Under the pieces are notes generated by a model. It ran no database searches. It was not told where the DNA came from and saw nothing but the letters and a program-made list of their open reading frames with translations. Positions 9,854-22,778 of a stretch of DNA of 64,000 nucleotides are shown here, piece by piece. The stretch comes from Haplodiscus bocki (Eukaryota), in the NCBI GenBank assembly GCA_965655095.1, contig OZ296659.1, forward strand, positions 64,790,001 to 64,854,000, in the 5' to 3' direction. Position 1 is the stretch's first letter. Each line of letters opens with the position of its first letter. Position numbers and translations under genes: made by a program.

Positions 9854-10213
9854 ATGCCACACCCGACCCATCAAAACCCAGTTGTTTGGAATACTCTCGG
9901 TGACGACGGATTAGACGAAATACCACATTTCAACTGCCCTTGGACCATCACTACAAGTAACGAAAGTATTACTGTTAATATTATATACCTAAAGTGGACC
10001 TTCAATTACGATTTTTGGATTCGTGTGGAGATTCACCCACAAGGGAATCCCAAAGCTTTCCAATTGTTAGATATAGATGAACTCCATCCATTGTCTAAAT
10101 CTCTTGCAACGGCACTTTTGAAATACTACGAATTTCCAGAACCCCACTTAACTGATTTTCAACTTCACGTCTATGCCGAATTAATGGACCATTTGTCCTA
10201 CAAAGTCGATTGA
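9854..10213 (+). CDS. Accessory ORF upstream of gag (119 aa, 'CxW' family)
   Basis: Intact ATG ORF ending 9 nt before the gag ATG. Resembles the ORFs at 17178 and 19170. Confidence 0.7.
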   Translation: MPHPTHQNPVVWNTLGDDGLDEIPHFNCPWTITTSNESITVNIIYLKWTFNYDFWIRVEIHPQGNPKAFQLLDIDELHPLSKSLATALLKYYEFPEPHLTDFQLHVYAELMDHLSYKVD

Positions 10214-10222
10214 GCTAAAATT

Positions 10223-11620
10223 ATGGCTAACACTCATCTCGCATACCCCGATTTGGCCTTAGACAAGTTCTCTGGCACTGATCCCGACCAAGACGCAGAG
10301 TCTTTCGTCCAGCTAATAGAAAGAAAAATTAACTTCGCGTTAGGTGATGCACCTGCGGATCCGGACGATTTGGTTAGTTACACCTTCCGTAAAAAAGCAC
10401 TTCTCTCTTCTCTCCTGCGAGGACCAGCAGCAGAGTGGTACGAAAATAACATTGAGAATGCCACCACTTGGGAAGACACACGAGAACAGTTCAGAACACG
10501 ATTCTCTGATGGACGAAACAAATTCCGACATAGAATGGAAGTAGAACACTGTGTGCGAGGCGATGGAGAAGAGATCAGAAACTTTCTACATTGAATAAAG
10601 AAAATTGTGGACGAAGGATGGCCTGACGATATGGAAGGTATTAAAGAAGCAGATAGAGCTGCAGAACGTCAAGCTCAAGGGAGACAAAGAAGACAACGGT
10701 ATATTGATTATACTCTACGAGGACTCCGTCCAAGGTATCTACAAAGAAAAGCTCAAGAGTACCTGATGGAACACCCAAACCCAATTTGGAACGGTTTCTC
10801 CACAAGAATCATACAAAGAGACGTGAGTTACCAAGTTTCTTTGAATTTCCTCAATGACGAGGAACAGACCTAAGTTCAACTAGCTTCGCTAGGACAAGAA
10901 ATGAAAAATCTTCGTTCCGAGCTACAAGAACATCGAGTAAATGCACTAGAAAACCCACGTCAGCCCGATCCTAACCAAAAAGGCCGACAAAACGCCACAC
11001 GGTTTTGCAAATATTGCCGCACCAATGGACACATTCCAATATGGTGTAGAAAGAAGATTCGAGATGAAGAAATCAAAAAAGTACAGGACGGAATGATGGC
11101 TGAAAAACGCGTGACGTTCACGAATGACTATAACAAACGCCGAGGACCAAGTCATGGATCTCTGGTCAGTTTACTTACAACAATGCTGGAAACAGATATC
11201 AAGCTGGAAAGGACTTACCTGATACACAACAGTTGACCTACGATGGGCTACACAGTTCGACCCACGAAGTAATTGGGGTAATCCCACCTGAAACAACACA
11301 ATCAACTCTGGTCGTGGACGACCGTTTAATCGATATCAGAATCAGTTCACTAGACGGAATGACGACAATGATTACGGGAGCGACAACACCGGAGCCCCGT
11401 CAAGAGGCACCTGGCAGAACATTGGAACCAATCCACGTTCTCCTTCTGGTCCGAGACGAGATCCACCGCAAAATCGACAGTATCAGCCCTCGCGGTCTAG
11501 TACACCTAACAATTCAGTATTCCGACGATCCAACAGCCAAGAATCCGGCGGATTTGTCCCCTACGAACAGCGCTTCCCACGAACCAATGACCAATCTGAC
11601 TCTAATCGCTCAAGGAGTTC
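10223..11620 (+). pseudogene. gag: Gag (capsid, CCHC nucleocapsid, R/N/Q/G-rich tail), disabled
   Basis: FSG..PDQD and LLRGPAAEWY retrotransposon-gag motifs. CKYCRTNGHIPIWC zinc knuckle. Stops at 10592 and 10871, frameshifts near 11160 and 11255. Confidence 0.9.
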
Positions 11621-11693
11621 AAGACTTAGCTTTAACGTTTTCTATTTCGCCACCGGAGACGCTCAAAAAAATAGTGGACTAGAAATCGAAATT

Positions 11694-19764: not shown

Positions 19765-21912
19765 ATGAAGCTATTATTCTTTCAACTCCTTGCACTTACT
19801 GTCGAGGTAGTTTCCAATTTCACTCCAGATGAAGACCAGGTTGCCCCAGCGCTTAAAGTAGCTCATTTTGATTGCAGTGCGATGACCGAGAATACTCTTT
19901 ACGCCTTAAATCAGGTACGACCATGCCATATTACGCCTGAAGAATTGGAAATAAGTAAGGCTAAAATTGTGCTCTACACTAAACATTTCAGGAAGGAACT
20001 CAACGCTACAAAATGCCGAGTACAGCACCAACGAGAAAAATGGCACTGCGGACATCACGACCATAGCAGCATTGATCATACTATTGCAGGAATCACAAGT
20101 GACATTGTTATCTCTCCAGAACAATGTCGAACTTTGGCGAAAGGAAAAGATATTACTTTGCACCGACATTCGATAAACTTTGGTTTCGACACAAAAAATC
20201 CTATTGTGAAAACTTATGGTGATACCAGCGATGACTACAGGAACGAATGTGACGGTAAAGGTTGGATCACTCGTGACACCTTACTCCCTCACATGCAGAC
20301 AACAACTCTGAAAGTTACTTCAGAAAACGGAAAAATTTTATCCGATAGTGGTTTAATTTTACCATGCGCTCTAGAAGAACTGGGATGCGAAACTACTTCA
20401 TTAGACCCTTACGCCTACATCTGGGGCTATCCCGACAACTGTGCGATTTCAATACTTCGAACGGAAGAAGTCAATATGGTGAAACAAGGAAAGAAGTATT
20501 ATGCTATCAGTGGAGCCGAATCCAGCTCTAAATTTGTATTTGAAGTCAAGAACAACCCCCAGAAACATTGTGGAAAGCCAACGACTATTTATCCTCCAAA
20601 CTATGACTCACTTTACATGGATCGTTTAAGCGAAGGTTTTGACATGGACACCGGGAGAAACCTGGGTCGCGATAAGAACGGAGCAACCAAGATCTTACAG
20701 TATTTGGGACCAAAGGAGAAAGGCGATTTCGGTCAAATTTATGCTCATAATACCAAGTTAGAAGGAACACAAAAAGTACAAACAGCCGACCCCGACAAGT
20801 ATCTGAACATTGATTACGATATGCACCTCGGAACGAAAATCGATTATCTAATCTTTCAGAGCTCGCGACTGCTCCAAGCGACTGAAATACAGTTATTGCA
20901 AAATCAGTGTGAACAGGAACGCACTCAATTTTTAACTAATCTTATGCTCGCTCTTGAGAACCCGCGTTTGGCCGGTTACATGCTCACAGGAAATCGATCA
21001 ATGTTTCTAGAAACAGATGGGAGCGTAGCATGGCTCTATCACTGCCCGAAAGTTCACTCGCCTCTTCACACAATGAACCAGTGCTGTGACAAAATTCCAA
21101 TTCTTTACAGAGGACAAATTCAGTTGGTTGAACCGATAACTCGACAAACCTATCCACATGCCATGACTCAAAATTGTTCTGATCGCATCAAGAACCTGTT
21201 TCAACTTGACATGGATCAGGAAGACTCCTGGTACACTCTGATACCTGGTATTGTACATCAAGACAAACCTGCCATATTTGGACATCAAGATATTAGTCCA
21301 GTTGCTTCCCACACTTTCACTAGATCACAGGACGCGGGCATGTATACTCGTAAAGAGCTTAAAGGATTTTGGGATAGCATCCTTTTCAATGCCGCTTCGA
21401 GAACTGCGCTTAAGAAGTTCTCACAAAATCTTATGGTTTACACCACCGCTAAAGAAGGAACAGACGGCTCTCATTTTTACACACCACGAACCGAGTTCTT
21501 TGTGGATAAGATGATTTCGCCTGGGTATTTCAAAGATCAATTCTTGGACACGTTTGGACCTGTCGTTTATGTACTTGAGCATTGCGGAATTTACTTCTCA
21601 GTCTTTTTGTTCATTAAGCTCATAATTGATATGGGAGTTATGATCGTGCGCTACATGGAAATAGATAAGTTAACTGGTTCAACTTTAGGGTTTGGTAAGA
21701 CCCTTTTGAGTGCCTCGTACAATATTTTCTTAACAAGTGTCTTAACTTCCATGTATAGCCCACGTGCTCCGGCGCTAGCCGCTGTCGAGCACATGGACGT
21801 AAGTCCATGTGTCGGAAGTGATATGCATGAGGTGAAAGAGGAAGTGAAAAAGAAAGACGAGCACCTCTACCCTGCGATGAGCACGGCAACACTACCATTA
21901 TCACCGGTATAA
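19765..21912 (+). CDS. env: Envelope glycoprotein, chuvirus-G-like (gB-related class III fusogen)
   Basis: Signal peptide, Cys-rich ectodomain (FDC...PC; C...HCG..DH; CEQER...P...GY...G...C..V...C...P.....P.TR), C-terminal TM helix GIYFSVFLFIKLIIDMGVMIV. 715 aa with no interruption. Confidence 0.85.
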   Translation: MKLLFFQLLALTVEVVSNFTPDEDQVAPALKVAHFDCSAMTENTLYALNQVRPCHITPEELEISKAKIVLYTKHFRKELNATKCRVQHQREKWHCGHHDHSSIDHTIAGITSDIVISPEQCRTLAKGKDITLHRHSINFGFDTKNPIVKTYGDTSDDYRNECDGKGWITRDTLLPHMQTTTLKVTSENGKILSDSGLILPCALEELGCETTSLDPYAYIWGYPDNCAISILRTEEVNMVKQGKKYYAISGAESSSKFVFEVKNNPQKHCGKPTTIYPPNYDSLYMDRLSEGFDMDTGRNLGRDKNGATKILQYLGPKEKGDFGQIYAHNTKLEGTQKVQTADPDKYLNIDYDMHLGTKIDYLIFQSSRLLQATEIQLLQNQCEQERTQFLTNLMLALENPRLAGYMLTGNRSMFLETDGSVAWLYHCPKVHSPLHTMNQCCDKIPILYRGQIQLVEPITRQTYPHAMTQNCSDRIKNLFQLDMDQEDSWYTLIPGIVHQDKPAIFGHQDISPVASHTFTRSQDAGMYTRKELKGFWDSILFNAASRTALKKFSQNLMVYTTAKEGTDGSHFYTPRTEFFVDKMISPGYFKDQFLDTFGPVVYVLEHCGIYFSVFLFIKLIIDMGVMIVRYMEIDKLTGSTLGFGKTLLSASYNIFLTSVLTSMYSPRAPALAAVEHMDVSPCVGSDMHEVKEEVKKKDEHLYPAMSTATLPLSPV

Positions 21913-21966
21913 AAATTTTTTTCAATATAACACGTTACTAATTCTTAGTGTTTAGATTCTTAATCA

Positions 21967-22296
21967 ATGGAGAGCGACGACTCTTTGCCCATCTTAACTG
22001 ATCTGGATTTCATATTCCCAACTTTAACGCCATCAGCATTGGAACAACCAGCCGAGCCAGTTGTAACTCTTCTCTCACCTCCTTCGATAAGTATTCCATC
22101 AAATCCTGCTTCACCCGACGAGCAATCAGACACAGCTCCAACGACGCGGGGACTATCTTCGGTTACGGGGTGTTCAGTTGCTACCTTCACTACTGACCAG
22201 CCACAAATTTCTACTATTGCATCTTCTGTTGGAGACGCTAAGTCCAAGAACTTATCCTCTCACCGTGCACGCGCACGCGCTCGACCTAAACAATGA
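21967..22296 (+). CDS. Ser/Pro/Thr-rich accessory ORF with basic C-terminus
   Basis: Intact 109-aa ATG ORF ending RARARARPKQ. Overlaps the next ORF by ATGA. Confidence 0.55.
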   Translation: MESDDSLPILTDLDFIFPTLTPSALEQPAEPVVTLLSPPSISIPSNPASPDEQSDTAPTTRGLSSVTGCSVATFTTDQPQISTIASSVGDAKSKNLSSHRARARARPKQ

Positions 22297-22778
22297 GTTC
22301 GAAATTTGCAACGACACACCAGCAAAGACTTCCCAAAAAGAGACAGACTAACACTTGCTCGCCAACACAAACGGGAGTATTTCACACAACTAGCGAGGGC
22401 CGTGAAGAAACCTCGTTTCAACCCCATTTGTGTTATAGTTTGAAACCAGAATATTCCTCCTGGAAGTTAATCTTTTGGGACAGCCAGCAACAGGAATTCA
22501 CCATACAGAACACATTTCTTCCCACTCAGCAGCTTGTTGTTCCGCTGCGCGCTATTACAGCTAATCCTCAGCATTGATTTAAATTTAAACTTTTCGAAGA
22601 AACTAATGGCTACCTTCATAATGACATTATGTACCTTGAAATTTCTTTCTTTGACCCGCCGATACCACCTACCCAGTCTTCTCTACTTTTTTTCTTTTCC
22701 GTAGAGACCCCCAATCATTTTCAACACCTTGTCAGTCGGGTGAGTTGTCGCGTTAGACCTAACGCTAAACAATCATAA
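22293..22778 (+). pseudogene. Accessory ORF reading through the PPT into the 3' LTR (one internal TGA)
   Basis: After TGA 22575 the frame continues FKFKLFEETNGYLHNDIMYLEISF...VSCRVRPNAKQS* to 22778. Confidence 0.55.

Follow-up and report, generated by a model that had tools for sequence, protein, structure and literature searches.

Env-bearing Ty3/gypsy elements, or 'errantiviruses', are widespread in invertebrates, according to the accessible text of PMC13524379. In Drosophila MDG1/412 elements, the available sections of one report describe a pair of small open reading frames (ORFs), sORF1 and sORF2, that lie upstream of gag, are under purifying selection and are translated, one product being a soluble protein of ~110 aa and the other a short transmembrane protein (bioRxiv 10.1101/2025.03.14.642691). 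Partial texts likewise depict planarian Burro as a gypsy-like element with host-interference cargo, including MATH_TRAF_C, and a mononegavirus-like env (PMC6431247), and rotifer long terminal repeat (LTR) elements as carrying captured extra ORFs (PMC5408684). Here we describe an env-bearing Ty3/gypsy LTR element of 17.3 kb in Haplodiscus bocki, which occupies positions 7266-24605 of a 64,000-nucleotide stretch of contig OZ296659.1 (positions 64,790,001 to 64,854,000, forward strand; hereafter the window) and houses all ORFs named in an initial annotation of this DNA. Its small genes very probably include a family of three diverged paralogues, and the number of such genes differs between related lineages within the same genome.

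The element resembles errantiviruses, as the accessible text of PMC13524379 presents them, in its LTR-gag-pol-env layout, its many copies in an animal genome and its fusion glycoprotein env. It differs in that its clade also has a pol with a Macro domain, an ORF of the TRAF-MATH type and three families of duplicated small genes; the words 'accessory' and 'macro' do not occur in the available text of that article. With MDG1/412 it shares small accessory ORFs upstream of gag that are under purifying selection. However, the MDG1/412 ORFs are described, in the sections available, as two unrelated single genes in env-less elements, with a helix-turn-helix predicted for sORF1 (bioRxiv 10.1101/2025.03.14.642691), whereas a beta-meander plus helix is predicted here, paralogue families flank gag-pol on either side and the element has an env, a distinction drawn from the descriptions. 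The cargo of Burro and the rotifer elements consists, in the available texts, of recognisable captured domains (PMC6431247, PMC5408684), while the small genes studied here have no family match and multiply through duplication within the element. Our literature search, whose scope ended short of subscription journals and bioRxiv supplements, found no report of this clade, nor of an LTR element within which paralogous accessory families expand.

Results

Family 1

The initial annotation had proposed that ORFs at 9854, 17178 and 19170 share a pattern, that a similar hairpin motif recurs at 18699, 18938 and 22293, and that one small fold had been duplicated three to six times and diverged fast. 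The peptides it quoted are all present at these positions, and duplication with fast divergence of a small domain within one element is upheld. The single six-member family is not; it is replaced by two soluble families, with three and two genes in the window, and 22293 is in neither. The five genes, all on the forward strand, are as follows.

9854..10213, +, family 1 paralogue before gag, 119 aa, intact (C-x-W...I-T-x-I-x-W)
17178..17558, +, family 1 paralogue after the integrase, 126 codons, in-frame stop at codon 36
18699..18920, +, family 2 paralogue, 73 aa, intact, 45% identical to 18938
18938..19162, +, family 2 paralogue, 74 aa, intact
19170..19508, +, family 1 paralogue before env, 112 aa, intact

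As the list shows, 17178 does not have an open frame in the window, and we read its stop as X. When the six window proteins were compared in 15 pairs against 2000 shuffles, 18699/18938 alone were significantly alike (z 27); 9854/17178 reached a local z of 3.4 (p 0.006 before correction for 15 pairs) and the other 13 pairs were at chance level in local mode. The trio being at or near chance, the window by itself is no proof of their paralogy.

Evidence for the trio comes instead from related elements in the same genome. Through divergent homologues we recognised five more lineages of the clade, labelled B to F, the window element belonging to lineage A. An extra 127-aa ORF in lineage B carries the C-x-W...I-T-x-I-x-W pattern and constitutes a fourth member of family 1. 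Leave-one-family-out hidden Markov model (HMM) searches with sister-lineage profiles, run over 7,008 six-frame frames of which 6,550 were background, ranked the held-out family first in four of four tests: 9854 (E 6.5e-9, with 42/76 frames outscoring the best background frame), 19170 (E 1.1e-6; 57/70), the 127-aa ORF (E 1.3e-4; 12/15) and 17178 (E 7.9e-4; 5/56, the best background being at E 0.008). The four paralogues align colinearly over the whole domain; across 24 of their sequences C28, W30, W48 and L88 do not vary, and C28, W30 and W48 are kept in 22-23 of 24 more divergent family 1 sequences. Lineage C has a 38% homologue of 9854, which profile comparison connects with 9854 itself (E 8e-20), with the 127-aa ORF (E 5e-5), with 17178 (E 1.5e-3) and with 19170 (E 9e-3); the remaining family 1 profile pairs are at E 0.007-0.15.

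From these comparisons we consider it very probable that 9854, 17178 and 19170 are paralogues, as the initial annotation held. Within one element paralogues are ~16-22% identical, with pI values from 4.4 to 9.2, and the lineage B orthologues are 50% (9854 type), 45% (17178 type) and 59% (19170 type) identical. The family 1 tree has long branches and six open forks and so does not give the order of the duplications.

Family 2 and the 22293 ORF

Family 2 comprises proteins of 73-78 aa, including 18699 and 18938, with at least five types across the lineages. The proposed hairpin link between the trio and 18699/18938 or 22293 found no sequence support when profiles were compared with each other and with 40 column shuffles. 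Family 1 against family 2 gave E 0.10, a value reached by 2/40 shuffles, and the 22293 group gave E 0.13 and 0.20 against the two families, reached by 3/40 and 6/40. No genuine cross-family HMM match stood above background, the lone family 2 match being a fused frame that holds a family 1 gene.

Nor does 22293 mark the start of a gene. A single ORF of ~202 aa spans 21967 and 22293 in 9 of the 16 sibling 3' regions, so the window copy is frameshifted. We thus rejected 22293 as a member of either family: it is the tail of a separate post-env gene whose product has a disordered N-terminal part, a basic stretch and a C-terminal domain of ~55 aa. This domain is conserved in all lineages, including D (36%), which lacks both families; the gene has no Pfam match.

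Gene number across the lineages

The window element is one copy of a high-copy clade in a genome of 1.5 Gb. Genome searches with 9854, 19170, 17178 and 18938 each gave at least 150 matches, these being the best 150 of 1,843-4,513 candidates. In an internal integrase tree built from 14 copies, D and C each stand apart from a group in which A, B, E and F are not resolved; the tree is midpoint-rooted and so does not give the direction of gain or loss.

Lineage D has neither family in 13/13 stretches. Lineage C has one gene of each in 25/25 3' stretches and none in 6/6 5' stretches. Lineage A, as in the window, has three family 1 and two family 2 genes, and lineage B adds to one pre-gag family 1 gene three more on the 3' side (15/17 stretches), together with two family 2 genes in 10/17 stretches or three in 5/17, one stretch being truncated and one empty. 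The single lineage E element has the pre-gag gene, the 127 type, a 17178 remnant seen by tblastn alone and two family 2 genes, and lineage F has three tandem pre-gag family 1 copies (7/7 elements), one 127 type and two family 2 genes. Family 1 therefore numbers 0, 1, 3 or 4 and family 2 from 0 to 3. The 9854 type has also changed place, standing before env in C and before gag in A, B, E and F. Accordion-like expansion and contraction is thus observed at the level of gene content, and the 'gene accordion' of the initial annotation is borne out in this respect. Tandem or nested arrangements were also seen: locus L206 has a second leader and gag after a first element, and L180 has repeated gag/Macro segments.

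Searches further afield gave few leads. A scan of 1.84 billion representatives returned 107 matches, none of them named. Three divergent homologues, P0276, P0300 and P0353, did not turn up in this genome when 150 candidates were scored under strict thresholds, and may come from other hosts. No cellular donor appeared among six examined of 13 longer proteins (8000 candidates scored), which is weak evidence; those six are sporadic fusions or read-through within the elements.

Selection and divergence

Pairwise Nei-Gojobori estimates from intact copies, with at most 8-12 per set, gave within-lineage dN/dS of 0.09-0.30 in all but one of 14 ORF sets, the exception being 18699 in lineage A with 0.55. 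The small genes have a dN of 0.30-0.49 when A is compared with B, whereas env has 0.16, integrase 0.12 and reverse transcriptase (RT) 0.095, the core controls being single pairs and dS being near saturation; protein divergence of the small genes is 2-5 times that of env or pol. Low dN/dS combined with high dN means that the small genes are real and fast-evolving. These values show purifying selection on the small accessory genes, within the limits of a pairwise test in which lineage dS is near saturation, pairs are non-independent and intact copies alone are compared. Conserved columns belong mostly to the hydrophobic core, with no catalytic set, and the proteins have no long hydrophobic segments.

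Predicted structures

The AlphaFold model of 18938 has four strands and one helix (pLDDT 75), and that of 9854, computed from a mixed-paralogue alignment, has four strands and two helices (pLDDT 81, pTM 0.75). The predicted fold of both families is a curved meander of four strands against which a helix packs. The two models have similar strand lengths and an equal link of five residues to the first helix, so that families 1 and 2 may share a remote ancestor, a common origin that the models only suggest.

Foldseek found no match in the PDB at E<=0.001 for either model; the top row for 18938, which would bear on a fold like that of PUR/PC4/Whirly-like bbbb-alpha nucleic-acid binders, was weak (Pur-alpha repeat III, E 0.05, TM 0.31, rmsd 8.6). 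The viral library likewise held no match to the 9854 model (best E 0.008, TM 0.23). With VIA, 18938 had its best Z of 5.5 with an EF-P-like domain I (rmsd 2.1, 50 residues aligned) and 9854 a best Z of 4.3, with EF-P domain I at Z 3.9 (rmsd 3.2, 56 aligned), each within a range of common arrangements; these values bear on a likeness to SH3-like small barrels (KOW/Tudor/chromo/Sac7d). EF-P/eIF5A domain I and PipX are weak neighbours of both models and represent a common arrangement. Since no VIA match exceeds Z 5.5 there is no clear solved relative, which says nothing for a new fold. No small ORF has a Pfam match over the cut-off; among PDB sequences the family 1 profile found none at E<=10, and the family 2 profile found 15 weak rows (best E 0.23).

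Expression signals

Just upstream of 17178 lie a pyrimidine tract and an AG, a likely splice acceptor. An AG at most 14 nt upstream of the 17178-type gene is present in 15/17 A and 11/12 B copies, with pyrimidine fractions of 0.75 and 0.68, which suggests a spliced message entering at this gene. The ATG of the 9854 type directly follows a stop codon in 23/23 A, 11/12 B and 1/1 E copies, with three different stop codons, and the same adjacency occurs in three B genes (4/4, 15/15 and 9/11) against a background of 5.6%. Copies of 18699 and 19170, and most of 18938, begin after a short gap from the neighbouring gene or overlap with it. Termination-reinitiation at close stop and start codons occurs in viruses and in the retrotransposon SART1, as the accessible text of PMC10275272 relates. 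A polycistronic RNA might be used here, in which a spliced message would start at the 17178-type gene and stop-start reinitiation would proceed along the gene chains.

In A, E and F, 9854 is in frame with gag with one stop between them. We nevertheless disfavour 9854 as an N-terminal Gag domain made by read-through, because in B the gene before gag lies in a different frame from gag. In A its stop codon is retained, either as TGA or as TAA.

Organization of the element and its other cargo

The remaining features of the element, also on the forward strand, are listed below.

7266..9125, +, 5' LTR, 1860 bp
9371..9508, +, hydrophobic mini-ORF, copy 1, ~45 codons, without a start codon here but open in siblings (HMM of the 9722 ORF, E 1e-9)
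9722..9853, +, hydrophobic mini-ORF, copy 2, 43 aa; its stop codon adjoins the 9854 start
10223..16975, +, gag and pol (protease, Macro, RT, RNase H, integrase; from Pfam), broken
19765..21912, +, env, 715-aa fusion glycoprotein (PF24664)
21967..22577, +, post-env gene in neither family, ~202 aa in siblings but frameshifted in this copy, with 22293 as its tail
22587..22697, +, TRAF-type MATH ORF remnant, mostly deleted here (tblastn to the lineage B ORF, E 1.5e-5)
22746..24605, +, 3' LTR

The two LTRs, 1860 bp each, differ by 26 mismatches and are flanked on both sides by the 4-bp target-site duplication ACTT. Pfam matches give the order gag, then protease, RT, RNase H and integrase, which fits Ty3/gypsy: Retrotrans_gag E 8e-5 and Macro E 8e-4, neither of which reaches its curated cut-off, RVT_1 E 3e-15 and rve E 2e-13. 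Downstream of pol, env matches Monjiviricetes_fusion at E 1e-36. As gag and pol are disrupted by stops and frameshifts, the window element is a decayed insertion.

The hydrophobic leader mini-ORFs of ~43 aa form a third duplicated family, with two copies in A, E and F and one in B; none was seen in the lineage C leaders shown. Their products are likely transmembrane. The 9722 mini-ORF keeps its full 43-aa frame in 13/23 lineage A copies and has homologues in B, E and F. By description only, these mini-ORFs recall short membrane ORFs such as MDG1 sORF2. A further hydrophobic leader ORF of ~61 aa (window ~9170-9361) is open in several A siblings, and E has one of similar size.

The TRAF-type MATH region is found in 16/16 A siblings, and in B and C it matches PF21355 (E 1e-16 to 2e-17); compared with siblings, about 870 nt of this region are gone from the window copy. 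Post-env MATH ORFs lie at L134:7354-8766, L140:7273-8646 and L162:8521-9264, and the start of this ORF in B, E and F resembles what we take to be a PAM2-like motif. The Macro domain of pol lies between protease and RT (window ~12480-12900), and lineage D has a Macro-like ORF before the protease.

Three 32-nt tandem repeats stand between 19170 and env (19543-19651), and the ~1 kb between 17178 and 18699 (17620-18700) is partly G+C-rich, with long frames on both strands. Elsewhere in the window, a tandem array with a 59-nt unit (39009-40016) is unrelated to the element, and a perfect 31-bp inverted repeat with a 4-nt spacer (30294-30359), possibly the end of a small DNA transposon, has diverged relatives near 42100 and 58175.

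Discussion

We hold with moderate confidence that the small accessory proteins are non-enzymatic binding modules that act on host proteins and ease expression or spread of the element. Copies would arise by internal duplication during replication and then specialise, each family serving as a scaffold whose copies would bind different partners. The absence of catalytic residues and long hydrophobic segments, together with pI values spread over 4.4-9.2, is what such a scaffold would be expected to show. A host-directed role is suggested by the Macro and TRAF-MATH domains carried alongside, families that are tied to antiviral and immune signalling. A far more specific version seems unlikely to us: that both families descend from a single gene with one beta-meander/helix fold, reach up to seven copies per element, hop between pre-gag and pre-env positions, are expressed as stop-start polycistrons and each neutralise a different host defence or silencing factor.

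Several observations weigh against a host-directed set of binding modules, or against parts of it. The products are known here from gene sequences alone, and lineage D, in which both families are missing, demonstrates that an env-bearing element can exist without either. Every pairwise dN/dS lies below 1, with no sign of positive selection. The two families have no sequence link in any profile test, and their likeness of fold was judged by the order and lengths of strands and helix. Stop-start adjacency is missing from 18699 (0/40), 19170 (0/31) and mostly 18938 (5/41). Within family 1, 17178 has the weakest of the four links, with 5/56 frames above background. The leave-one-out tests overstate independence, since families were picked by motif and background frames are redundant copies, and the 127-aa ORF provides the sole out-of-sample test of the trio.

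Alternatively, the paralogues might serve the life cycle of the element itself, in transcription or RNA export, packaging or assembly, or as Env helpers, in a Rev/Tat-type or matrix-like manner and not against host defence. This is a tentative possibility that purifying selection unaccompanied by positive selection would fit, as would genes that flank gag and env and look translationally coupled, the position of 9854 in the gag frame behind one stop in A, E and F, and weak fold neighbours that include nucleic-acid binders (Pur-alpha repeat III, EF-P/eIF5A domain I, Sac7d/Cren7-like). However, a copy number of 0-4 and free repositioning accord poorly with a fixed replication step, and the frame is not shared in B, nor is the intervening stop lost in A, where it is TGA or TAA. 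Most members are moreover acidic or neutral; we rejected basic nucleic-acid binding for the small proteins, as only the 19170 type and 18699 are basic.

It is also conceivable, though improbable, that one copy matters and the extra ones are nearly neutral products of dosage or drift that arose by template switching. Losses do occur, such as the middle 73-aa gene missing in 10/15 full B stretches and the 19170 type not found in E or F, and the dN/dS of 0.55 for 18699 within A points the same way, but each paralogue is separately conserved across lineages with near-saturated synonymous sites and a dN/dS of about 0.1-0.3. Least credible is convergence of small beta-rich proteins in place of common ancestry for the trio. 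Pairwise scores at or near chance in the window and several profile pairs at only E 0.007-0.15 are what it would predict; against it stand the first rank of held-out families in all four tests, full-length colinearity with the invariant C, W, W and L, and a fourth member that came to light independently within the same cluster.

Small accessory genes that change in copy number and diverge rapidly are familiar from poxvirus gene accordions, from the paralogous accessory families of large DNA viruses and from the accessory genes of complex retroviruses. What sets the present case apart is that the differences are fixed, distinguishing lineages of a 17-kb retroelement, and do not amount to a transient amplification in the face of a known host restriction factor. 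A retrotransposon usually has no more than two additional ORFs, and most of these are known domains that were captured. The clade described here has about ten, including three internally duplicated families that had no Pfam, PDB-sequence or solved-fold match in the searches run. Moreover, a single genome contains lineages with 0, 1 and 3-4 copies side by side, across hundreds of insertions, which makes the gain, movement and divergence of accessory genes directly traceable. The proteins are small and soluble, and could easily be expressed for partner searches. Should binding to host defences prove true, the clade would be an example, rare among retrotransposons, of the gene accordions that large viruses display, and if its small proteins do antagonise the host, the partners they bind would point to pathways against transposons or viruses in an animal that is so far unstudied.

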